From an uncultured Bacilli bacterium (GTDB taxonomy: Bacteria > Bacillota_I > Bacilli_A > RF39 > UBA660): a stretch of DNA of 64,000 bases. Under the pieces are notes generated by a model, which worked only from the letters and a program-made list of their open reading frames with translations, ran no database searches and had not been told where the DNA came from. A program made the translations under genes and the position numbers. The stretch lies in assembly GCA_947623925.1 (NCBI GenBank), contig CANQID010000002.1, forward strand, positions 25,823 through 89,822, in the 5' to 3' direction. Shown here piece after piece: positions 2,593-14,667 of the stretch (position 1 is the first letter of the stretch; each line of letters begins with the position of its first letter).

Positions 2593-5500
2593 TTGAAAGA
2601 TGAATTTAAGGAAGTCTTTTTTCAAACTAGAGATGAAACTTTAGAACTAATAAAAAAAGATAATTACAATTGGAATAAATTTATGAGTTATTGGTCAAAA
2701 TTGTTAGATGGCTATGGTATTGATAATATAATAAATTTATATTCATATAATCCAAATGGAAGAATTTATCATACATTTGATGAGTGGAATAATGATATTA
2801 TTGATAGAAAAATAAAACCTAAAAGTAGAGGTATTCCTATACTCAAAAATGGTAAGAAAATATATGTTTTTGATATAAAGCAAACTTATGGTAAAGATTA
2901 TAATCATTGGAATTATAATCACTTGGTAGATTATGAAATGTTGAGATTTTATCAAAATAGAAATAAAATTATAGATAGTGATATACCAATGAATGAACGA
3001 TATTATAAAGTGTTTTATAATATTGTTGAAGATAATATTCAAAATAATTATAGTAATTTGAACGAAGAAGAAGTTGAGGTTATTACAAAAATGATAACCT
3101 CACTTTTTTTGTATAAATGTAATTTTAATACATATAACTTGTCAAATGGTTTTGAGTTAATTAATGATTTTAACAATGAAGATATTTTAAGATTTATGCA
3201 AGTTGCTAATAAAGAAACAAAAGCAATTTACGAGAAATTTTATATTGATACACAAAAAATGCAAGATGTACAATATAAAATTAAAAATGCTATTATTGAA
3301 CAATATAAAACTAATCAATTTATGCCTAACAGTGATAAGCAGGGATTTTTAGAAAGTATCGAAATTGATAGTGGGTACGATTTTGAGTTATTAAATGATA
3401 TTTATAATAATTTGTTAGACAAGTATTCATATATTAATCAGAAACTATCAAGTTCTAATGATGATAAAAATGTAGAAAGTTTATCGAAAGATATTGATAA
3501 TACAAAAGGTAAAGTTGAGCAGTTATCACTATTTAATGGTATAGAAGATGAATTAGCAAATAAACTTTGTGATATATTTAATTCTTTTGATACAAAATAT
3601 AAAAATACATTTGAAATTCATAATGTCGAACTACAAAAATGGGAACACATAAAATCTAATAAACGAAATTTGTCAATCATTTTATCTAGCCCTATTGCTG
3701 ATATGGGGGAAAATGCTTTTTCACATTTTAATGTTGATAAAACAGATGAAAACAAATTAAATGAAGGAATTGCAAATAATGCTTTTATTCAATCACTATA
3801 TAAAGATAAAGATTTTTCAATTTATATTTCACCTAATTTGGTACATATTTATTGGAACAATTTTGATGAAAAACAATTCGATATGACTATACCTAGTACA
3901 AAATTGATAACTCAAAATGAAATTGATAGTCAAGAATTAGAACACATCGATAATGAAGTATCTGATATTATTGATAATAATATATCTTATAAAGTTACAA
4001 CTGCTAGAATTATACCAACTCGTAATGGTATTGAAACTAATGTAATTGAAGAACATAGTTATAATAGTGTAGGAGAAGAAGTTAAAGAAGAATATCCACC
4101 ACTTAATTATCATATAGATGATGATAAAATTGATACAAGCTTTGGTGCAAAATCAAAGTTTGATGATAATATAAAGGCAATAGAATTATTAAAAAAACTA
4201 GAAAAAGAAAATAGAAATGCAACAAGTGATGAACAGGATATTTTGTCAAAATATGTAGGTTGGGGTGGAATTGCTGATGCTTTCGATGAAAGAAAAGATA
4301 ATTGGAAAAATGAAAGAGAAAAATTAAAATCACTTTTAACCGATGAGGAATATAAAGAATCTGCACATTCTACTTTGTCATCTTTTTATACACCAAATCT
4401 AGCAATAGATGGAATATATAAAGTATTGAAACAATTTGGTTTTGAAAAAGGAAATATATTAGAGCCAAGTTGTGCAATTGGAAACTTTTTTGGAAGATTA
4501 CCTAGTGAATTTGAAAAATCTAAATTATATGGTGTAGAGATAGATAGTATAAGTGGTAGAATTGCTAAAAAACTTTATCCTAACGCTAAAATAGAAATAA
4601 GTGGTTATGAGAATTCGAAAGTTTCAGATGAATTTTTTGATGTTGCAATAGGTAATGTACCTTTTGGTAATAATACAGTATATGACAAAAGATATAAAGA
4701 TAAATTTTTAATTCATGACTATTTTTTTCAAAAAACATTAGATAAAGTTAGAGCTGGAGGATTAATTGCTTTTATAACTACTGATGGAACATTAGATAAG
4801 AAAGATACTAGAGTAAGAGAGTATATAGCAAAAAGAGCAGAATTTTTAGGAGCAATAAGATTACCAAATAACACTTTTTTAGGAAATGCAAATACAAAAG
4901 TTACATCTGATATTATATTTTTGAAAAAAAGAAATGAACTTAAGTTAGATATAAATGATGAAAAATGGATTTATACAAGTGAATATTCTGATGGAATTAC
5001 AATAAATAACTATTATGTTGATAATCCTGATATGATGCTTGGAAAAATGGAATTACAATCGACTGCGTATGGCTATGATAATACATTAAGTCCAACTGAT
5101 GAAGATATTAATATATTAATGGAACAAGCAATACATAATTTACCTAGAAATATTTATGAAAAAGTTACATATAACGAAGAAGAAATAAATAATGAATATG
5201 AAATACTTGATGCAGATGACGATACTATTAAAAATAACGCTTTTGTTATTAAGAATATAAATAATAAAGATGTCATTTATCAAAGATTGGATTCATCATT
5301 AGTACCATATCCGATTCAAGATGGAATGGTAGCAAAAAGAATTATTGGTCTTTGTAAAGTGAAGACAGCTTTAAGATATGTTTTTGATGTACAACTTCAT
5401 GATGGAAGTGATGAAGATTTAGAAATAGCACAACAAATCTTAAATGATGAATATGATGAGTTTTGCAAAAAGTATGGTTATATTAATGATAGTTCAAATG

Positions 5501-8500
5501 AAAGAGCATTTAGTAATGATCCAGATTATTATTTACTTACATCTATTGAAAATATTATAAATAAGGATGAAGATGATAGTAAGCCAATATATGAAAAAGG
5601 AGATGTTTTTACAAAAAGAACTATTAGAAAAAGTAAGAAAGTAACTAAAGCTGAAACTGCTGAGGATGCATTAAGATATTCATTAAATAATCGAGGGTGT
5701 GTTGATTTTGAATATATGAAAAAATTATATCCAAAAGAAGATAATGAGATAATTAATGAATTAGATAATTTAATATTTCAAGATCCTGAAAAAGAAAGTA
5801 ATTCTAATAATGGTTGGGTAATAGCAAGTGAATATTTGAGTGGTAATGTAAAGCATAAACTTAAATTTGCTAAATCAATGAATATTGATAATAAATATGA
5901 CAAAAATATTGAGGCACTCGAAAGGGTACAACCTAAACCTATTGAGTATGACGAAATAAGTGTTAAATTAGGAACAACATGGATACCAGAAGATATATAT
6001 CATGATTTCTGTTGTGAATTATTAGATATATATGGTGAAAATAAAAACCTACTAAAAATAAAATATGTAAAAGAAGCAAACACATGGTTATTTCAAGCAA
6101 GTGGTTTATATAATTATGGAATAAAAAGCACGAGTACTTGGGGAACTCATAGAGCTGATGCTTTAGCTTTAATAAAGAATGCTTTAAATCTTCAAACTGT
6201 AACTGTATACGATCAACTCGAAGATGACAGGAAAGTTGTAAACCCTATTGAAACTGCTAATGCAAGAGAAAAGCAAGAATTAATAAAACAAGAATTTAAA
6301 GATTGGATTTGGAGAGATGAAGAAAGAAGAAATAGATTAACAAAATTATACAATGAACAATTTAATTGTATGAGAGAAAGAGAATTTGATGGTAGTCATT
6401 TAACTTTCGATGGCATGAATCCAAATATAGAACTTAGGACACATCAAAAAAATGCAGTTGCTCGTGTTTTATATGGTGGGAATACATTACTTGCTCATGC
6501 AGTTGGTGCAGGCAAAACATATGAGTGTATAGCAAGTGCTATGGAATTAAAAAGACTTGGTATTGTTAGTAAACCCATGTTTGTTGTTCCAAATCATTTA
6601 CTAGGACAATGGGCAAATGAAATATTAAAACTTTATCCTATGGCAAATATTCTTGTGGCAACTCAAAAAGATTTTGAAAAAACAAGAAGAAAAAAGTTCA
6701 TGGGAAAAATAGCAACAGGGGAATGGGATGCAGTTTTAATTGCACATTCTAGTTTTGGACTTATTCCTATGAGTAAGGAATATGAAGAAAAACATATGCA
6801 AAAACAAATATATGAAATAACTAGTGCTATTGAAAGAATAAAAGAAGAGTCAGGGAAAGGTTTAAGTGTAAAGAAACTTGAACAAATGAAAACAAGCATG
6901 GAAACAAAATTAAAATCATTATTAGATGCACAAAAAGATGATGTAGTTACATTTGAAGAACTTGGCGTAGATGAATTAATTGTTGATGAGGCACATATGT
7001 TTAAAAATCTACCAATGTATTCAAAAATAAGAAATGTTGCAGGAATAAATAATAGTGAAAGTAAAAAGGCTACTGATTTATTTATGAAAGTAAGTTATAT
7101 ACTTGAAAATAATGGTGGAAGAGGAGCAATATTTGCAACAGGTACTCCAATATCTAACTCAATGGGAGAATTATTTGTAATGCAAAGATATCTTCAAATT
7201 GATAGATTAAGAGAAATGAAATTAGAATATTTTGATGAATGGGCTTCAACTTTTGGAGAAATAGTTAATAGTTTTGAAATAGCACCTGATGGTAGTGGTT
7301 TTAGAACAAGAGCAAGATTTGCACAATTTTTTAATATTCCAGAACTTATGACTTTATTTAAAGAAATTGCTGATATTAAAACCTCAAAAATGTTAGATTT
7401 ACCTATTCCTAAATTAAAAGGTGGAGATTATAAGATTGTAGTTGCACCTAAAAGTGAAGAATTAGAAGAGTATATACAAAAATTAGCAGAGAGAAGTGAG
7501 GTAATTAGAGAAGGTTGTGATCCTAGAAAAGATAATATGCTTTTAGTTACAAATGATGGAAGAAAAGCAGCACTCGATTTAAGAATGATAGATCCAAGTA
7601 TGCCAGATTTACCAAATTCAAAGATAAATATGGCAGTAGAAAATATTTATAGAATATGGTTAGAGAACAAAGAAAACAAGCTAACACAACTTGTTTTTTG
7701 TGATTTATCTACACCTAAAAATGATGGTACTTTTAATGTTTATGATGATATTAGAAATAAATTGATTAAAAAGGGTGTACCAAGTGAAGAGATTGAGTTT
7801 ATTCATAATGCTAAAACTAATCAACAAAAATTGAAATTATTTGAAGACATGAGGAATGGAACAAAACGAGTGCTTATAGGCTCAACTTCTAAAATGGGTG
7901 CAGGTATGAATGTTCAAGACAAATTAATTGCTTTACATCATCTTGATTGTCCATGGAGGCCATCTGATATAGAACAAAGAGAGGGGAGAATTTTAAGACA
8001 AGGAAATCAAAATGATGAGGTAGAGATATATAGGTATGTAACAGAGGGTAGTTTTGATGCTTATTCATATCAATTAATTCAAACTAAATCAACTTTTATA
8101 AATCAAATAATGGCTAATAGTAATGGTGGAGGAAGAACAGCAGAAGATTTAGACAGAGATACACTTACTTATGCAGAAGTTAAAGCACTTGCTAGTGGAA
8201 ATCCTTTGATTTTAGAGAAATTTAAAGTTGAGAATGAATTAAAACAATTATATTTATCTAAAAGTAGGTATGATAAAACTCATATTGAACTTGAATCAAA
8301 ATATAATAATGAACTTCCAAAACAATTAAAATACCAAAAACAATATTTAAGCAATCTTGAAGAAGATATAAAAAATGTAAAAGATTTGTCTGCTGATAAT
8401 TTTAAAATTACTATTATGGAAAAAGTATATAATTCAAGAAAAGAAGCAAGTACAAAATTTTACGAAAGTTTGTCATTATTGAAATTAAATGAGGAAATCA

Positions 8501-8874
8501 AATTGGGTAGCATAAGTGGTTTTGATATTGTTGGTATAAAAGATGGATTATGGTATAAACCTATAATTTATATCAAAGGTGCAGGAAAATATAGGGTTGA
8601 GATAAACGATATAGACGAAATTGGTAACATTTATAAATTAGAAAATATGTTAAAAAGTTTTGAAAATAAGATAAATACAGTTAAAGAGCAAATAAGTTAT
8701 AACGAGAAACAACTTATCGATATAAAAGAAGAACTTGACAAACCTTTTAACCAACAAGATAGAATTAAAGAATTGCAAAAAGAAAAAGCTAGAATTGATA
8801 GTGAACTTGATTTAGATAAGCAGGAAAATATGACAAATTTAGATGAACTTGATGAAGAAGTGATTGAAAGATAA
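2593..8874 (+). CDS. Giant (2093 aa) N6-adenine DNA methyltransferase + SNF2/DEAH helicase fusion protein, DarB-like (probable anti-restriction protein of the mobile element)
   Basis: MTase motif I '[12 protein letters not shown]' (aa ~623) and motif IV 'GNVPFGNN' (aa ~686). Helicase motif I '[11 protein letters not shown]' (aa ~1300), 'DEAHMFKN' (aa ~1464) and HELICc '[25 protein letters not shown]' (aa ~1780). About 600 aa at the N terminus have no recognised domain, and the C terminus is coiled-coil. Confidence 0.75.
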
Positions 8875-9185
8875 AACTTTTTAGATTTTTTGCAAAAAAA
8901 CTCTTGCAAAATTTACTTTTTTAAGTGATAAATAAACTGAACAAAAAATGCTGTTAAACATATCTAATTCAAACGATATTAAAGGTGATGTGATAAATAC
9001 TAAAAAATAAAACCTCTTAAAACAGCTTTAAATAGTTCTTATGAAAGAAAAAGAAGAATTTAACCAAGATTTACTGAATTATATTACTGAAACAACAAGT
9101 AATGTCAGAAATTTAATAGATAAATTAGAAAAAAAGGAAGATATAAATAAATTAAAATTTTTAATTTTGAATCGATTGGATTGTA
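8872..9185. repeat. Degenerate duplicate (with two internal deletions) of the promoter/5'-gene module at 10879-11530
   Basis: About 110 bp are near-identical (8872-8990 vs 10879-10990). The copy then continues with fragments matching the start of the 11080 ORF and parts of the 11331 ORF. Confidence 0.8.
8904..8935 (+). promoter_or_regulatory. Putative sigma-A-type promoter (TTGCAA -35, about 17-nt spacer, TG-aTAAAT -10 region), copy 1
   Basis: The sequence 'TTGCAAaatttacttttttaagTGATAAAT' sits immediately after the giant gene's stop and is duplicated at 10911-10942. Confidence 0.35.
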
Positions 9186-9193
9186 TTATATGA
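9041..9193 (+). pseudogene. Chimeric 50-aa ORF fusing the N-terminus of the 11080 ORF to fragments of the 11331 ORF (decayed paralog, no Shine-Dalgarno)
   Basis: It translates to MKEKEEFNQDLLNYITE|TTSNVRNLIDKLEKKEDINKLKFLI|LNRLDCII. The RBS present in copy 2 ('gaaaggag') is deleted here. Confidence 0.45.
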
Positions 9194-9430
9194 TGCTAGT
9201 AAGGGACTGTTAAGAAATTAATCATTTAATTTTTGAACAGTTCCTTTGAACATGATTATAATTTTAAGTCTGGATGGTTACTGTTATTTAAAAAAACAAA
9301 AAACCAGAAATTAGTTGAAAAATGATTTTGAAAGTGATATACTCAAATTAGAAAAATCAGAAAGAGTTTCACAACATATAGATGGGAGGGATGACACAAT
9401 AATATAATGTTTTTTTGAAATTGATTTGAA

Positions 9431-9497
9431 GTATGTTGTATGTTGTGTGTTGTATGTTGTATGTTGTGTGTTGTGTGTTGTATGATGTATGCTGTAG
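9431..9497. repeat. GT-rich microsatellite, imperfect (TGTTGTRTG)n, about 7 units
   Basis: Direct reading gives 'gtatgttgtatgttgtgtgttgtatgttgtatgttgtgtgttgtgtgttgtatgatgtatgctgtag', about 80 bp upstream of the 9580 ORF. Confidence 0.85.
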
Positions 9498-9579
9498 ATT
9501 TTTTTAAGGTAAGGAGGTAGTATGAAAATAATTTTTGTTTTCATGACTATGTGTGCCTTGAATAAAGAGAAAGGAATGT

Positions 9580-10263
9580 GTGGTTATTATGAAAAAATTA
9601 AAAGAAAAAATTTTAAAGATTTTATTAGTAGCAGTACTTGCAGTACCATTTTTTTTATCAAACAGTTCAACTGTTTTAGCATATGAGTCAGACACAATTG
9701 ATGAGGCTTTTAAAAATTTACAAAATAAAATAGATTCTAAACTAGATATAGTGTATGATAATGGTGAATATGTTTACTCATATAATTATGATGATATTAA
9801 AGAAATAATATATAATTCTGGATTTGATTTTGAACAATTTAATGCCAAGTATGGAACAAATTATGACAAAACTTCATTTTTAAATGCTGTTATAACTTCA
9901 ATAGATAGTACAAAATTACATTCAAATGTAGCACCAATTGCAAATTATTGTAATCATGATGAAAGTACTCAAGGATGGAATTATTATAGAGAATTTATGT
10001 CAGAATCTGTGTCAAAAAATACCGTATCAGATTTAAGGCAAACAGCAACTAATTTTAGACTTGGTGGAACAGGAGTAGGGTTGTTAATAGGTACTGTTAG
10101 TAAATTATTTGGAGGAGTATTTAAATTGGGTACAGCATATGATGCTTGGTATTTTGATACATTAGCAAATTCAATAGAAGTTAATATGTCTGGTTGTGGT
10201 ACTGTAACTGACATCAATAAATTTACTACTGTATTTACTGTATGGGATCAAAGAGATTTTTAA
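9580..10263 (+). CDS. Secreted protein (227 aa) with signal peptide and a C-terminal Gly-zipper amphipathic region; putative toxin/bacteriocin-like cargo
   Basis: Signal peptide 'KKLKEKILKILLVAVLAVPFFLSNSSTVLA|YE' and a C-terminal 'LGGTGVGLLIGTVSKLFGGVFKLGTAYDAWYF'. The likelier start is the ATG at 9589. Confidence 0.5.
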   Translation: MVIMKKLKEKILKILLVAVLAVPFFLSNSSTVLAYESDTIDEAFKNLQNKIDSKLDIVYDNGEYVYSYNYDDIKEIIYNSGFDFEQFNAKYGTNYDKTSFLNAVITSIDSTKLHSNVAPIANYCNHDESTQGWNYYREFMSESVSKNTVSDLRQTATNFRLGGTGVGLLIGTVSKLFGGVFKLGTAYDAWYFDTLANSIEVNMSGCGTVTDINKFTTVFTVWDQRDF

Positions 10264-10280
10264 TAAGGAGGTAGCTATTA

Positions 10281-10538
10281 ATGAAATTGGGAAAAAAAAC
10301 CAGTAAGTATATTTATATAATAATATCTTTGCTAGCTGTTTTCTTACTTTTTTTAGGAATCGGTAAAGTGATTGAACTTAGATTGGCTTCATTACTTATT
10401 GAATTTTTGGTTTGTATTACATTTTTAATTGATTCTATTTTTAAGTTTAAAGAAGGTAAAAAGGCAGAAGCATTAACATTTTTAATTTTTGTTATATTAA
10501 TGGTTTTCTTTACTATTTCAAGTCTCCTAAATTATTAG
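10281..10538 (+). CDS. Small membrane protein (85 aa, 2-3 TM), candidate immunity/partner protein
   Basis: The RBS 'taaggaggtag' precedes it, it is hydrophobic throughout, and it lies 18 bp after the secreted-protein gene. Confidence 0.5.
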   Translation: MKLGKKTSKYIYIIISLLAVFLLFLGIGKVIELRLASLLIEFLVCITFLIDSIFKFKEGKKAEALTFLIFVILMVFFTISSLLNY

Positions 10539-10603
10539 TTTTTTGATTTTTTAAGTATATAATGAAAGGGTCTGTTTGGAAATTAAATTATTGATTTTAC
10601 GGC

Positions 10604-10697
10604 TCTTCGAAATCTAGTGGGGGAGTAAAAAATAGTTCTCATCGAAATTTGATGAGGACTTTTTTTCATATTATCTTCGAGTTTTAGTGAGGAGTAA
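10604..10697. repeat. Three imperfect about 24-bp direct repeats (iteron-like), consensus tcYtcgaRwtYtaGtGrGGAGta
   Basis: R1 is 10604-10628 'ctcttcgaaatctagtgggggagtaa', R2 is 10637-10660 'tctcatcgaaatttgatgaggact' and R3 is 10673-10697 'atcttcgagttttagtgaggagtaa'. Confidence 0.6.
10635..10668 (+). terminator. Rho-independent terminator after the secreted/membrane gene pair
   Basis: The stem 'ctcatc' + loop 'gaaattt' + 'gatgag' is followed by 'gactttttttc'. Confidence 0.5.
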
Positions 10698-10910
10698 CAA
10701 AAGGTTGTTATTCACTTTTTTATATGAGATAATTATTATATAATTTATATTACTAGAAAAGGCTCAAAAGTTTAAATGAATTATTATGATGAATTGGCTC
10801 ATCTAACATTAGCTGTTAGAATCATTTATGACTATTATAAATTTTAATTACGAAATTTGGTATAAAGAAAATCCAAATAAAACATTTTTAGATTTTTTGC
10901 AAAAAAACTC

Positions 10911-10942
10911 TTGCAAAATTTACTTTTTTAAGTGATAAATAA
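10911..10942 (+). promoter_or_regulatory. Putative sigma-A-type promoter, copy 2 (drives the 11080/11331 genes)
   Basis: Same sequence as 8904-8935, placed about 140 bp upstream of RBS 'gaaaggag' and the ATG at 11080. Confidence 0.35.
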
Positions 10943-11079
10943 ACTGAACAAAAAATGCTGTTAAACATATCTAATTCAAACGATATTAAAAGTGATGTGG
11001 AGGGTTTGGTAACTATAAGTACTAAAAAATAAAACCTCTTAAAACGGCTTTAATTAGTTCTTATGAAAGGAGTTTATTT

Positions 11080-11316
11080 ATGGAAGAAAAAGAAGAATTT
11101 AACCAAGATTTACTGAACTATATTACTGAAAATTTTAAGGCAACAATGGAAAGTGATTTTGAGGAAAAAGTTTATGGCTTTCCATATACAAGATGTCTTA
11201 ACACATTTTTTCAAAGGTTAAAGAAAGAATATAATATTGATTTTAATGCTGATTTTATAAGTGATAAATTATTAGATAAAGTTGTTGAAGAATTTTTATT
11301 AAATATAACTAAATAG
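11080..11316 (+). CDS. Hypothetical protein (78 aa)
   Basis: Good RBS 'gaaaggag'. Its N-terminus 'MEEKEEFNQDLLNYITE' is duplicated in the chimeric copy at 9041. Confidence 0.5.
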   Translation: MEEKEEFNQDLLNYITENFKATMESDFEEKVYGFPYTRCLNTFFQRLKKEYNIDFNADFISDKLLDKVVEEFLLNITK

Positions 11317-11330
11317 AGGAGGAATGATTT

Positions 11331-11834
11331 ATGTATATTACTGAAACGACAAGTAATGTTAGAAATTTAATAGAGGAATTGGAAAAAAAGGAAGATATAA
11401 ATAAATTAAAATTTTTAATTTATATATTTGGATTATTAAATAATGACCAAATAAATACTGATAATGAATTAAATCCTAGTTTAGTAGAAAAGGATGATAT
11501 GAAAATTTTTAATTTTGAATCAATTGGATTATCAAATAATATATGCACAATATTATTACAATATTTTTCTATGTTATATAATAATATGACAAATACAAAA
11601 GATACATATGAGGACAATGGAAATATTATTGGTGTTAATTATGATAAGGAAGATAAAGAAATTATTTCAAAATTTGAAAAACTTAAATTTAATGAAAAAT
11701 TAGATTTATTTAGTGAAATTATAATTAGATACGATAATGAAACTTACTTTGATAAAAAAATTACAAATCCCTTATTTAATTTAAGGTTGAGTGGATTTGA
11801 AATGGCAAAAATAATTAGAGATTTAAAAATATAG
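11331..11834 (+). CDS. Hypothetical protein (167 aa)
   Basis: RBS 'agaggagg'. The N-terminus 'MYITETTSNVRNLIEELEKKEDINKLKFLI' is partly duplicated at 9090-9170. No motif was recognised. Confidence 0.5.
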   Translation: MYITETTSNVRNLIEELEKKEDINKLKFLIYIFGLLNNDQINTDNELNPSLVEKDDMKIFNFESIGLSNNICTILLQYFSMLYNNMTNTKDTYEDNGNIIGVNYDKEDKEIISKFEKLKFNEKLDLFSEIIIRYDNETYFDKKITNPLFNLRLSGFEMAKIIRDLKI

Positions 11835-12000
11835 TATTAAATCTTTAGAGTGTTATTTGAAAACTTAATATTTAGATAGCATTCTATGGATAAATCTATC
11901 TTCATTACAATATTGAGTTTTCAAATAATGTATTAGGAACTCAATATTTAGAGTTCTTTTTTTCATTTATTCAAATAAGTTTAAATGAGGAGGAGAAATA

Positions 12001-12201
12001 TTGGACAATGGTCTTTCAATTAATATTGCTAAAAAAGAAATTCAAAAAGCAATTATTAATGAACTCTTTAAAAAAGGCGTAATAGATTTTTGTCAATGTA
12101 ACAACATTATAAAGAAGTTAGATGAAGATATTATAAAATTAGAAGATAAATTAGAAAATAAGGAAAATATGACAAATATAATAGTTAAAATTTCAATTTA
12201 A
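12001..12201 (+). CDS. Small acidic/coiled-coil protein (66 aa), candidate recombination directionality factor/regulator
   Basis: RBS 'gaggaggag'. It ends 2 nt before the recombinase RBS region, consistent with translational coupling with the recombinase gene. Confidence 0.4.
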   Translation: MDNGLSINIAKKEIQKAIINELFKKGVIDFCQCNNIIKKLDEDIIKLEDKLENKENMTNIIVKISI

Positions 12202-12218
12202 AAGTGGGAGGAATAACG

Positions 12219-13946
12219 ATGGTACTGAATTTGTATTCAATAAGAAATATTTTATCACAAGGAAAAAAATTAATAGATTTACCACTTCGCGTAACATTTT
12301 ATGCTCGTGTATCAACAGACCATGAAGAACAATTAAATTCATTAGAAAATCAGGTCATGTATTTTGAAAATTATATTAAATCACAAGCAAATTGGATATT
12401 TGTAAATGGCTATGTAGATGAGGGTATAAGTGGAACAAGTGTTAATAAAAGAGATAATTTTCTTAAGATGATAAATGACGCTAAAAAAGGAATGTTTAAT
12501 TTGATATTAACAAAAGAAATATCGAGATTTTCAAGAAATACTATTGATAGTATTCAATATACACAAGAATTATTATCTTATGGTGTTGGAATATATTTCT
12601 TAAATGACAATATTAATACATTTGATTCAGATTCAGAACTTCGTTTAACTATTATGTCATCTATTGCACAAGATGAAATAAGAAAATTATCAGAAAGAAT
12701 TAGATTTGGTTATAAAAGAAGTATTGAAAAAGGAGTAGTCCCTGGAAGTGATAATTTTTATGGTTATAAAAAAAATAAAGGTAAGTTGGAAATAGTAGAA
12801 GAAGAAGCAAAACTAATAAGACTTATTTTTAATGAATATAGTAAAGGAAAAATGGGTACTTCAAAACTAGGGCGTTATTTATATGATGAATATAATATTG
12901 TAAGTAAAACGAATAAAGCATTAGCAGGGGCTGTTATAACAAAAATAATTAGAAATCCAAAATATAAAGGTTATTTTTGCGCTCATAAGGAAACTACAAT
13001 TGACTATCATTCAAAAAAAAGAATTAGATTTAAACCAGAGGAATGGATATTATATAAAGACAATGAGTCATGTCCTCCAATAGTGTCAGAAGAACTATGG
13101 GAAAAATGTAATAAAATATTAGAAGAAAATTCTATAAAACATAAAACGAATACTAGAACTGATATGAGGTATGCTTTATCTGGGAAAATAAAATGTTATC
13201 ATGATGGGGCATCTTTCATAAGAGGTAGCTATAAAAATAGGAGAACAGGAGTAGAGAGCAAGTATTGGGGATGTTCTAATTACAGAAAATATGGAAAATC
13301 CAAAATTAATGGGTGTAGAACTCCTATTATATATTACAATGAATTATTAGATATATTTAAAAAAATAATAAATAATATATTAGATCAAGAAAATGGCGTA
13401 GTCGAAGAAATTTATGGATTAATTGATGAAATAGAACAGAAAACAGACTACACAAAAGAAATAAATGAGGTAGATAGAAAGATAATAGAAATAAAAAAAG
13501 CAAAATCAGAATTAATTAATATGAGGGCAAGAAAAGAAATAGAGAAAGATGAATATAACGAATCGAAAGAAAAATATAATAGTGAATTATTAACTCTTGA
13601 AGAGAGGAAACAAAAATATTTAGCAACAAGTTTAAAAGTAGACTACAAATCCAACATTAATGATTTTATCAAAAAAGTTCGTGATATAGTTTTAGAAGAT
13701 GACGAATCCGTTTTTAGTATATTTGGTTCTGTAATTGATAAAATATTAGTAGAAAAATTAGAATCAAAAGAAGATAATATTCATAAGATAATGTTACATT
13801 TTAAATTGAACATACTTGGCTACGATAAAAGTAGCTTAAATTTAAATGATTTTTTACTGCTTTTTAGTAACCACGACAGACGCAGTTGTGGCGCTTGCAG
13901 AAAAGATAGCGGGAACGGAAGAAATGTTTGTAGATATGATGAATAA
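12219..13946 (+). CDS. Large serine recombinase (resolvase/invertase catalytic domain + recombinase domain + zinc ribbon + coiled coil)
   Basis: The active-site context 'VTFYARVSTDHEEQLNSLENQ' is present. The protein is about 575 aa with a Cys cluster ('CPP...C', 'CYHDG...GCSNYRKYGKSKINGCR'). RBS is GGGAGG and ATG is at 12219. The 3' end overlaps the dac junction. Confidence 0.85.
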   Translation: MVLNLYSIRNILSQGKKLIDLPLRVTFYARVSTDHEEQLNSLENQVMYFENYIKSQANWIFVNGYVDEGISGTSVNKRDNFLKMINDAKKGMFNLILTKEISRFSRNTIDSIQYTQELLSYGVGIYFLNDNINTFDSDSELRLTIMSSIAQDEIRKLSERIRFGYKRSIEKGVVPGSDNFYGYKKNKGKLEIVEEEAKLIRLIFNEYSKGKMGTSKLGRYLYDEYNIVSKTNKALAGAVITKIIRNPKYKGYFCAHKETTIDYHSKKRIRFKPEEWILYKDNESCPPIVSEELWEKCNKILEENSIKHKTNTRTDMRYALSGKIKCYHDGASFIRGSYKNRRTGVESKYWGCSNYRKYGKSKINGCRTPIIYYNELLDIFKKIINNILDQENGVVEEIYGLIDEIEQKTDYTKEINEVDRKIIEIKKAKSELINMRARKEIEKDEYNESKEKYNSELLTLEERKQKYLATSLKVDYKSNINDFIKKVRDIVLEDDESVFSIFGSVIDKILVEKLESKEDNIHKIMLHFKLNILGYDKSSLNLNDFLLLFSNHDRRSCGACRKDSGNGRNVCRYDE

Positions 13947-14667
13947 AAGAGCAAAAGAATTAGGATTAACAGAAACTAACTTTAAAAATGTACATGGATT
14001 ACATGATACAAATCATTATTCAAGCGCATATGATATGTCAATAATAGCTAAAGAACTTGTAAAGCATGAAAAGCTATTTGAATACACGTCAATTTATGAA
14101 GACTACTTAAGACAAAACACAGATCGTAAAATATGGCTAGTTAATACAAATAAACTAGTAAGATTTTATAATGGTGTTGATGGATTAAAAACAGGATATA
14201 CAAAAGAAGCAGGATATTGTTTAACTGCAACAGCAAAAAAAGACAATATGCGTGTAATAGCTGTAGTAATGGGAGAACCCGATAGTCAAACAAGAAATAA
14301 AGAAGTAACGGAAATGCTAGATTATGCTTTTGCTCAATATGAAGTAGAAGAAATATTGTCAAAAAATAGTATTTTAGATAAAGTTAAAGTTTCAAAAGGA
14401 AAAGATGAATATGTAGAAATAGTACCAACACAACAAATAACATTTTTAAATAAAAAAACAGAACCTAAAAAAACAGCTACTTTTGATTTAAATATAAATA
14501 AACTATCTGCTCCTTTAAAAGTTGGAGATAAAGTAGGAACTATTAAAGTAAAAGAAGACGGAATAGAAAGAATAATAGATGTAACAGTTAAAAATGATAT
14601 AGAAAAAGCAAATATATTTGAAGTATATATAAGAAACTTAAAAGATATGCTTGTAGGCAATATGTAG
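13878..14667 (+). pseudogene. Interrupted D-alanyl-D-alanine carboxypeptidase gene (dacF/dacB/PBP5 type): C-terminal about 260 codons only
   Basis: The sequence 'DAVVALAEKIAGTEEMFVDMMNKRAKELGLTETNFKNVHGL...GLKTGYT...' aligns to PBP5-type enzymes from the SGN motif onward. The SGN motif is replaced by element-derived 'TTT', and the SxxK active-site serine region is absent. Confidence 0.65.

Follow-up and report, generated by a model that had tools for sequence, protein, structure and literature searches.

Why should the same promoter-like stretch of DNA occur twice near the right end of a mobile element, once directly behind a giant gene and once ahead of the element's last operon? The question arises in a window of 64 kb from an uncultured Bacilli bacterium (the window being the whole stretch of DNA that was analyzed). 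A first-pass annotation of the window took the region for a place where promoter-plus-leader modules are reused in front of different cargo. We consider here a different answer, that the repeat is probably a scar, left when cargo was acquired at a hotspot of an integrative conjugative element (ICE).

A control region present twice at the right end of an ICE

The window covers the right end of an ICE, whose left part falls outside the 64 kb. A TraG/VirD4 gene is followed by a gene encoding an SNF2-type protein of 2093 aa, then by a large serine recombinase gene, and finally by a truncated dac gene. Positions 88-2055 match T4SS-DNA_transf at 2e-56, and also TraG-D_C and TrwB_AAD_bind (all from Pfam), the signature of a type IV coupling protein. 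In the protein encoded by the giant gene (2593-8874, on the forward strand, as are the element's other features described below), Pfam reports SNF2-rel_dom, ResIII, and Helicase_C domains and no methylase domain. A giant gene encoding an SNF2/COG4646 methylase-helicase has been described in Tn5252 and Tn1549 (PMC7168690). The coupling protein, the giant SNF2-type gene, and the terminal site-specific recombinase are all points of resemblance to ICEs of the Tn5252/Tn1549 type, a likeness of gene content only; strict membership would call for relaxase, coupling protein, and VirB4 that are each over 40% identical to those of a family reference, together with attL/attR.

The last operon begins with a 78-aa gene (11080-11316), occupying a slot that varies within the family, as it does not align to the 76-aa gene found in most relatives. 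It is followed by conserved genes of 167 aa (11331-11834, with 617 homologues) and 66 aa (12001-12201, found in all relatives that carry the serine recombinase) and then by the recombinase itself (12204-13946; Pfam Resolvase, Recombinase, and Zn_ribbon_recom), which marks the right end of the ICE. The 167-aa protein has no match in Pfam, NCBIfam, PHROGs, or PDB, nor did a fold search with its AF2 model (pLDDT 70) yield one. Adjoining the recombinase is a truncated Peptidase_S11 gene (13846-14667) that begins at position 102 of the Pfam profile, so the terminal recombinase lies beside an interrupted target gene. Relatives are inserted in the same Peptidase_S11 gene family, but in different chromosomal neighborhoods.

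The repeat is unmistakable. Between 8870-8992 and 10877-10999 the identity is about 99%, and the similarity extends through four more collinear blocks, as far as 9182 in one copy and 11530 in the other. As defined by a repeat finder and gapped alignment, the first block (8873-8992, matching 10880-10999) extends over 120 nt with 1 substitution and a 1-nt indel at 8876/8877. It is followed by 8993-9047 matching 11015-11069 (3 mismatches), 9048-9092 matching 11087-11131 (1 mismatch), 9093-9167 matching 11347-11421 (5 mismatches), and 9168-9182 matching 11516-11530 (1 mismatch). A 50-nt core occurs exactly 2 times in the window, against 0.00 expected from 100 shuffles. The first-pass annotation had already noted a block of about 110 bp present twice, and it had placed the features to within 1-9 nt.

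Could the repeat have been created by the assembly? The element is known from metagenome-assembled genomes of uncultured Bacilli, where variants of a strain might be collapsed or chained, and one short Logan contig (L002) ends inside the repeat, at 11026. Nonetheless, the copies differ at about 5% of positions and by four indels, which makes an artefact very unlikely indeed, close to negligible. Moreover, 1.7 kb of unique sequence lies between them, an ENA assembly from a separate deposit (L001) has the same structure at 100% identity over 5 kb, and four further contigs have the same gene neighborhood.

What has been duplicated begins with a short block, which we call the P module, found at 8870-8933 (copy 1) and, differing only by a 1-nt indel, at 10877-10940 (copy 2). 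The left edge of copy 1 is the stop codon of the giant gene (8872-8874). The module consists of an A/T palindrome, AGATTTTTTGCAAAAAAACT (8883-8902 in copy 1), then TTGCAA (8904-8909), a 17-nt spacer, and GATAAAT (8927-8933). Its core, CTCTTGCAAARTTNNNTTTTTTAAGTGATAAAT, is conserved in all relatives, and the combination of TTGCAA, 17 nt, and GATAAA is nearly invariant across the family. The block may well be a promoter, though its putative -10 sequence (GATAAA) is imperfect. A simple scan for the sigma-70 consensus does not call the module, since it breaks the rule that requires T at position 6 of the -10 element. Promoter-like sites are not in general more frequent in this AT-rich region than chance would have it (33, versus 29.9 in shuffles).

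The P module is followed by a leader, about 140 nt long in copy 2 (10941-11079), which is predicted to fold as a three-way junction and which ends in a ribosome-binding site (RBS). Within the window, a covariance model of the leader matches only the two copies of the repeat. RNAalifold predicts a fold of 25 pairs, in which covariation is modest: compensatory changes affect 4 pairs, spread over three of the four helices. Of the alignment's cells, 95.2% are paired, a share that drops to 33-50% if each partner is slid along. As many as four pairs with changes on both sides arose in 9 of 500 shuffles, and the covariation score, 0.157, was reached by 1 of 500, figures that come from 12 closely related sequences, only about 8 of them distinct. 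In its position between a promoter-like block and an RBS and in its conserved predicted fold, the leader is similar to structured 5' leaders of other mobile-element genes. Unlike known cis-regulatory RNAs, it matches no family in Rfam 15 (4227 families; none at E <= 1 within 8000-12500), nor do the leaders of three relatives (L003, L024, and L034) at E <= 0.5. Neither a ligand, nor a terminator or anti-terminator, nor a helix that would sequester the RBS came to light for the leader. As an observation in its own right, a conserved leader with a predicted structure precedes the recombinase operon.

Decay of the upstream copy

Judging from the sequence, copy 1 is the decaying copy, and copy 2 is the intact, working one. 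Compared with copy 2, copy 1 lacks sequence at four places: 15 bp, whose junction shows no microhomology; 17 bp including the GGAG RBS, lying between TTATGRAAG repeats (8/9 match); 215 bp bounded by perfect 13-nt repeats of TATATTACTGAAA (13/13); and 94 bp bounded by perfect 14-nt repeats of AAAATTTTTAATTT (14/14), with a resulting shift of frame. The 15-nt and 17-nt segments are found in every relative, and none of the four deletions is shared by the outgroups, which thus polarize the differences as losses from copy 1. The 15-nt and 17-nt losses fall in the leader of copy 1 (8934-9040). The first of them took away the 5' arm of helix 4, and the leader scores only 86.7 bits with the covariance model, compared with 134.6 for copy 2. 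Private substitutions are also unequally distributed, 10 in copy 1 versus 1 in copy 2 (binomial p = 0.012).

Redundant duplicates in bacteria are prone to decay into pseudogenes, and direct repeats give rise to slipped-strand or short-homology deletions. Copy 1 follows the pattern well: at each of the three junctions with short homology one repeat has been retained (9, 13, and 14 nt), while only about 0.12 13-mers would be expected by chance between the two genes. A translation signal has been lost, a frame has been shifted, and substitutions are about tenfold more numerous in the redundant copy. The 17-, 215-, and 94-bp losses may thus be counted as short-homology deletions, the process that the first-pass annotation had proposed. 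The 15-bp loss departs from the pattern, and so does the undecayed promoter portion of the copy.

The outcome is an open reading frame of 50 codons (9041-9193) that is chimeric, in accord with the first-pass annotation. Its first 13 residues correspond to the start of the 78-aa gene, and residues 14-42 to residues 2-30 encoded by the 167-aa gene. A tail of 8 residues follows, for which codons 57-67 of the latter gene are read in another frame. It is conceivable that the fusion created a new functional micro-protein, as the frame is intact and begins with ATG. This is highly improbable: the deletion of the RBS, also reported by the first-pass annotation, lies within the 17 bp lost, the tail is out of frame, and two residues that all sisters conserve have been altered in the portion derived from the 167-aa gene. 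The frame matches no protein family, and the gene callers of public collections call no gene there. With its RBS deleted, its frame shifted by the 94-bp loss, and its excess of private substitutions, copy 1 has the marks of a decaying duplicate and the frame those of a pseudogene.

The decay has not been uniform. The 106 nt at 8878-8983, comprising the promoter and the early leader, are free of all 10 substitutions and all 4 deletions that affect the rest of copy 1 (p = 0.014). Perhaps, then, copy 1 has been kept because it is useful, as a second operator that titrates a regulator or as the source of an orphan leader RNA whose action in trans would fall on the intact leader or on the control of excision. 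It is consistent with this idea that the sole substitution in helix 1 (9024, G to A) converts a U.G pair to U-A and that the leader of copy 1 remains more stably folded than shuffled versions of itself (z = -1.87). The statistics, however, depend on only 10 substitutions, and the core could have been kept intact just as well by gene conversion from copy 2. Furthermore, the 15-nt deletion destroys helix 4, and the arrangement has been seen in one lineage only. All in all, we regard a retained function as unlikely, if deserving of some thought. A more elaborate version, in which the leader of about 140 nt is a new cis-regulatory RNA that gates the excision/integration operon of the ICE, with copy 1 (8870-9040) kept as a modulator, strikes us as quite improbable. 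If it were true, the orphan copy would titrate a regulator or act as a trans RNA, and the duplication would then be regulatory rather than a neutral scar.

The cargo segment and its hotspot

Between the two copies lies a foreign segment of about 1.7 kb (9183-10876). Just past the end of homology at 9182 is a long hairpin of about 21 bp (9201-9247; -23.6 kcal/mol, z = -5.17, with 0 of 200 shuffles folding as well). It may serve as a terminator or an insulator, but it has no canonical U tract, so termination is not assured, and a terminator scan does not call it. A promoter scan finds the cargo's own promoter, TTGAAA-17-TATACT with an upstream TG (9315-9343), within a promoter and 5'UTR region (9284-9520) that also contains 9.4 repeats of GTATGTT (9431-9496) and an RBS near 9510. 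The first cargo gene (9589-10263) encodes a protein of 224 aa with a signal-peptide-like N-terminus and, according to family searches, no known family. The second (10281-10538) encodes a hydrophobic, membrane-like protein of 85 aa and always accompanies the first. The unit is closed by an intrinsic terminator (10634-10660; a 12-bp stem and then TTTTTTT, from the terminator scan), and a second hairpin with a T run can be read directly from the sequence at about 10690-10725. Homologues of the 224-aa gene occur in other mobile-element contexts (L009-L014). The flanks of the segment, 9183-9283 and 10543-10876, have no match anywhere searched.

If the promoter and leader constituted a portable unit that is moved ahead of different cargo, then copy 1 would be there to drive the genes of 224 and 85 aa. 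It does lie upstream of them and in the same orientation, no change has touched its promoter core, and the site of insertion is hypervariable. We nonetheless consider this idea decidedly unlikely. The module and its leader are found in single copy in more than 20 related loci, always ahead of the operon with the 167-aa gene, and twice only in the element of the window; no relative examined has an internal duplication. In the relatives, the module lies directly 3' of the stop codon of the upstream gene (an orthologue of the giant gene, 2100-2129 aa) and is followed by a small ORF, the 167-aa gene, the 66-aa gene, and the recombinase, the single-copy architecture seen in L003-L008, L015-L019, L033, and L034. 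Moreover, where the cargo cassette occurs elsewhere, in three contexts (L009-L014), a search with the covariance model finds no P module. A promoter belonging to the cargo itself is conserved in L014 and L037, in both cases with no P module upstream, and the hairpin at 9201-9247 stands between copy 1 and the cargo. Finally, the duplicated stretch includes useless fragments of genes, as expected from a by-product of recombination but not from a promoter cassette. A different module, made up of the promoter and 5'UTR that belong to the cargo (9284-9446), is the one that does recur ahead of unlike genes; it precedes the 224-aa gene here and, at 87% identity (L037 130-296), a 98-aa gene in L037. 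It may be remarked separately that this region, with its variable-number heptamer repeat, stands ahead of different predicted secreted-protein genes.

In calling the region prone to recombination, the first-pass annotation was right. The site behind the giant SNF2 gene is a cargo hotspot, and relatives close and distant have different inserts there, every junction falling no more than about 30 bp from the stop codon and palindrome. Five other states of occupancy are seen (at least six by another count). The site may hold a 285-aa gene (L036, L038-L040), genes of 98, 80, and 235 aa (L037, where a remnant of the 285-aa gene persists), a 186-aa gene (L024-L031), or an operon of at least nine genes (L032). 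The family is also mosaic. The giant gene of the window is 99.1% identical to that of L036. The right-hand module of the window, by contrast, has only 96% identity with that of L036 but 99.2-99.3% with those of L039, L040, and L042. Since the nearest relatives of the two parts differ, exchange between elements must be frequent.

Hotspots for variable DNA are a known feature of ICEs, HS1-HS5 of SXT/R391 being examples. The accretion and decay of elements has also been described within ICEs of Firmicutes of the Tn5252/Tn1549 type (PMC7168690). The site considered here has much in common with such hotspots: a fixed intergenic point within a conserved backbone, accessory genes that differ among relatives, elements made mosaic by recombination with one another, and lingering remnants of old insertions. 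It is unlike them in that the insertion came with a 650-bp duplication of a control region and the starts of genes, which is true of no other state of occupancy in the family.

Origin and meaning of the duplication

The most probable account, then, is that the repeat is a scar of cargo acquisition. Ancestrally, a conserved control region, consisting of the A/T palindrome, the promoter-like block, and the leader, would have headed the last operon of the ICE. A single recombination event probably placed the foreign segment after the SNF2 gene and at the same time duplicated about 650 bp, a stretch that starts with the control region, spans the 78-aa gene, and takes in the first 200 nt of its 167-aa neighbor. 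The segment would have brought with it its own hairpin, promoter, genes for a predicted secreted protein and a membrane protein, and terminators. The event could have been an unequal or illegitimate exchange between related elements (for example, by way of tandem copies followed by deletion) or else a single-crossover (Campbell-type) insertion of a circle with about 650 bp of homology. No donor with the cargo upstream of a P module was found in the sequences searched, and the actual event cannot be reconstructed.

Thereafter, the downstream copy would have retained its function, while the redundant upstream copy decayed, losing 15 bp of its leader, its RBS, the greater part of the 78-aa gene, and some of the 167-aa gene. 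Slippage between direct repeats of 9-14 nt would account for three of the four losses and for the chimera of 50 codons, presumably untranslatable, that resulted. The intact promoter core of the upstream copy probably still binds a regulator or fires, giving a short orphan transcript that would run into the hairpin at 9201-9247, and the cargo would be expressed from its own promoter.

The age of the duplication is a complication. Copy 1 has diverged by about 5%, compared with 0.8% between copy 2 and its closest sisters, which lack the duplication. Therefore, either an old duplication was followed by recombination that replaced the right-hand part, or copy 1 comes from a lineage that has not been sampled. 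On the side of the scar account, a derived G is common to both copies (at 8990 and 10997). Neither the outgroups nor the sisters that are otherwise closest (L039, L040, and L042) have this G, although two other sisters, L037 and L038, do carry it.

For annotation, the ORF at 9041-9193 is best left without a gene call, and a flag should mark the second copy of the promoter. The duplication, present in one lineage, left intermediates that display decay by slippage, and no new mechanism is revealed. The locus is a clean but ordinary, well-resolved case of the gain of cargo by an ICE in uncultured gut Bacilli, and the fixed hotspot behind the giant SNF2 gene helps to locate cargo in this family of ICEs.

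The repeated segment and its setting

An integrative conjugative element (ICE) has its right end in the first 14 kb of the window: a TraG/VirD4 coupling protein (88-2055), a SNF2/helicase protein of 2093 aa (2593-8874, here the giant gene) and a large serine recombinase (12204-13946), bordered by a D-Ala-D-Ala carboxypeptidase gene that lacks its 5' end. Giant SNF2/COG4646 genes and such coupling proteins have been described for Tn5252- and Tn1549-type ICEs (PMC7168690). The insertion target is this Peptidase_S11 (D-Ala-D-Ala carboxypeptidase) gene (13846-14667), which the recombinase gene overlaps in its truncated form; the related loci L003-L008 show the same target family in differing chromosomal neighbourhoods, and now and then other genes (PGA_cap in L005, iPGM in L007).

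Between the giant gene and the recombinase, one segment occurs twice, as copy 1 (8870-9182) and copy 2 (10877-11530). A repeat finder and gapped alignment agree in pairing 8873-8992 with 10880-10999, 120-nt stretches that differ by a single substitution and a 1-nt indel, and the alignment continues through four further collinear blocks, 93-98% identical (8993-9047 with 11015-11069, 9048-9092 with 11087-11131, 9093-9167 with 11347-11421, and 9168-9182 with 11516-11530). The 50-nt core of the repeat is found exactly twice in the 64-kb window, where chance predicts none, and the same 5 kb is present at 100% identity in a separately deposited ENA assembly. The duplication proposed in the first-pass annotation is thus confirmed. 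Among species-representative genomes, those with an exact match to the core are MAGs from human and goat gut that bear the label uncultured Bacilli.

Four pieces of copy 2 have no counterpart in copy 1: 15 bp, where the junction shows no microhomology; 17 bp that include the GGAG ribosome-binding site (RBS), with TTATGRAAG repeats at both sides; 215 bp flanked by perfect 13-nt repeats of TATATTACTGAAA; and 94 bp flanked by perfect 14-nt repeats of AAAATTTTTAATTT, the last shifting the reading frame. What remains encodes a 50-aa ORF (9041-9193) that is, as had been described, a chimera. The accompanying account of its decay, by deletions between short direct repeats with loss of the RBS, fits three of the four events; the 15-bp deletion must be exempted.

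The direction of change was judged against sister elements that encode an identical 78-aa protein (loci L036-L042). Both the 15-nt segment and the one with the RBS are present throughout the outgroups, so their absence from copy 1 represents deletion. Private substitutions number ten in copy 1 (8984, 8997, 9024, 9032, 9079, 9094, 9106, 9121, 9122 and 9174) and one in copy 2 (11381; binomial p = 0.012). Copy 1 is thus a decaying duplicate of a copy-2-like sequence, with slippage the main agent of decay. Its derivation from a sampled lineage other than that of copy 2 is ruled out, since each of its differences occurs in copy 1 alone. A derived G at 8990/10997 is common to both copies and to the sisters L037 and L038 but absent from the outgroups and from L039, L040 and L042, otherwise the closest to copy 2; this fits descent of both copies from one source, though not decisively. 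The decay is uneven: the promoter-like block and the leader's first 50 nt (8878-8983) have escaped all ten substitutions and all four deletions (p = 0.014). Either selection or gene conversion would explain this.

The control region in related elements

The 167-aa protein encoded behind copy 2 has 617 homologues, and about 40 loci were read. In L003-L008, L015-L019, L033 and L034, the order is constant: the stop codon of the giant gene, at once the conserved promoter-like block (P; 8870-8933 and 10877-10940 in the window), a leader of about 140 nt, genes of 76, 167 and 66 aa, and the serine recombinase. The core of P, CTCTTGCAAARTTNNNTTTTTTAAGTGATAAAT, preceded by an A/T palindrome, is invariant across all distinct relative sequences read and may be read as TTGCAA, 17 nt, GATAAA. 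A simple consensus promoter scan did not list the core, such scans being uninformative at 24% G+C; position and conservation suggest that P is a promoter. Scans for the exact core pattern returned three loci in species-representative genomes, one in JGI metagenomes and two in IMG/VR, all single-copy.

For the leader (10941-11079), RNAalifold gives a three-way junction of 25 pairs, in which 95% of the cells are paired, versus 33-50% with the partners slid. Four pairs show compensatory changes on both sides, and the covariation score was reached in 1 of 500 shuffles. Since the set is small (12 sequences) and closely related, the predicted structure is plausible but not established. Neither the window region nor its relatives matched an Rfam family. 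The leader is seen also at, for example, L003 5616-5757 and L034 6011-6153 (minus strand), two relatives giving z = -2.7 to -3.3; an additional outer helix (GAACGAA/TTCGTT), left out of the pair count, appears to covary.

Between the leader and the 167-aa gene lies a slot occupied by a 78-aa gene in the window (11080-11316) and by a 76-aa gene in most relatives (5755-5985 in L003 and L019). BLASTP gives no alignment between the two proteins, so the slot holds small genes that are unrelated or unrecognisably diverged. Its gene is internally deleted in L023 (about 5900-6000) and L032 and absent from L024-L031. What replaces the 66-aa gene and the serine recombinase in these last loci (e.g., L024 5793-9227) is a pair of genes of 201 and 119 aa and a tyrosine integrase of 587 aa, joined to the same promoter-leader and a 170-aa gene: the control region is conserved, and the recombinase module behind it has been exchanged.

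The cargo and its insertion site

The segment between the copies (9183-10876) carries two genes with expression signals of their own. A good promoter (TTGAAA-17-TATACT, with TG before it; 9315-9343) precedes a 5'UTR in which the array (GTATGTT)x9.4 (9431-9496) stands between the promoter and the RBS of a 224-aa gene. The product of that gene has a signal-peptide-like N-terminus, the 85-aa product of the second gene is hydrophobic, and an intrinsic terminator lies at 10634-10660. A hairpin of about 21 bp and exceptional stability (9201-9247; -23.6 kcal/mol, z = -5.2), which begins 18 nt past the end of the repeat homology and has no U tract, is a candidate terminator, processing site or recombination site. 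The similarity of 9215-9247 to 10565-10597 (33 nt, 79%) was set aside as evidence of cassette-flanking repeats, matches of equal quality being common in AT-rich sequence. On the 3' side of the 85-aa gene, 10590-10725 contains two hairpins in series with T runs, a similar motif of about 24 nt preceding each (CTTCGAAATCTAGTGGGGGAGTAA and CTTCGAGTTTTAGTGAGGAGTAAC). For the 340 bp that separate the cargo from copy 2, none of the searches gave a match.

A 54-codon ORF (9522-9686) has a strong RBS (AAGGAGG, 5 nt before its ATG) and overlaps, in another frame, the start of the 224-aa gene (ATG at 9589), whose RBS is weaker. It may act as an upstream ORF or in translational coupling.

The two-gene cassette is found elsewhere in mobile contexts devoid of P. 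In L009-L011 it neighbours a Mob_Pre relaxase and a serine recombinase, in L013 it lies within another ICE-like region, and in L014 a group II intron adjoins it. In L014, the intron domain (RF02001, 110 bits; 1360-1531) lies directly 3' of the closest homologue of the cassette. The stretch with the cargo promoter and 5'UTR (9284-9446) shares 87% identity with L037 130-296, there ahead of a gene for a 98-aa secreted protein, and is conserved at about 110-260 in L014, ahead of its 224-aa gene. The first-pass annotation supposed that a promoter-leader module is reused before different cargo. For P this is unsupported, P being single-copy in relatives and the cassette occurring elsewhere without it; the module seen before different genes is instead the cargo promoter and 5'UTR. 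No viral sequence scanned contained the cargo-promoter motif. The heptamer runs to 9.4 copies in the window, about 5 in L014 (221-256) and about 2 in L037 (281-297); it may allow expression to vary in phase or level, or serve as an array to which a protein binds.

Searches for function returned little. Megablast of 8800-12300 against plasmid and phage collections gave no match, and the 224-, 85-, 78-, 167-, 66- and 50-aa products had nothing above noise in Pfam, NCBIfam or PHROGs. Against the PDB, a profile of the 167-aa family drew weak, chance-level matches only, and the AlphaFold model of the 167-aa protein (pLDDT 70) had no Foldseek match in PDB at E <= 0.001; the model of the 224-aa protein, from six sequences, was too poor for a fold search (pLDDT 55).

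Relatives differ from one another in the 30 bp or so that precede the palindrome, and the site behaves as a cargo hotspot. In the canonical state nothing is inserted. L036 and L038-L040 carry a 285-aa gene that uses the last codons and stop of the giant gene; L037 has genes of 98, 80 and 235 aa plus a remnant of the 285-aa gene; L024-L031, the sub-family with a tyrosine integrase replacing the serine recombinase, have a 186-aa gene; and L032 has an operon for nucleotide metabolism with nine genes or more. None of these states includes a second copy of the module.

Origin of the arrangement

A single recombination event would have produced the order P-78-167' (the truncated copy), cargo, P-78-167 and onward. 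Two routes may be envisaged, each calling for one illegitimate junction (9182|9183) plus homology. In the first, two related elements, perhaps in tandem and one of them with cargo upstream of P, would undergo unequal exchange or a deletion between them. The second would be a Campbell-type single crossover with a circle bearing about 650 bp of homology and the cargo. The donor was not found among the sequences searched, so no choice is made between them.

One tension attends either route: the private divergence of copy 1 is 5%, whereas copy 2 differs by 0.8% from its nearest sisters, none of which has the duplication. The 3' end of the giant gene (7000-8858) is 99.1% identical to L036, while the P-78-167 region (10877-11856) shares 99.2-99.3% identity with L039, L040 and L042 but 96% with L036. 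This split implies recent homologous exchange among co-circulating elements, the family being mosaic. Given that mosaicism, the right-hand part may later have been replaced by homologous exchange, which would reconcile the two divergences. The feature is best read as an ordinary scar that the acquisition of cargo left in an ICE, though an unusually legible one.
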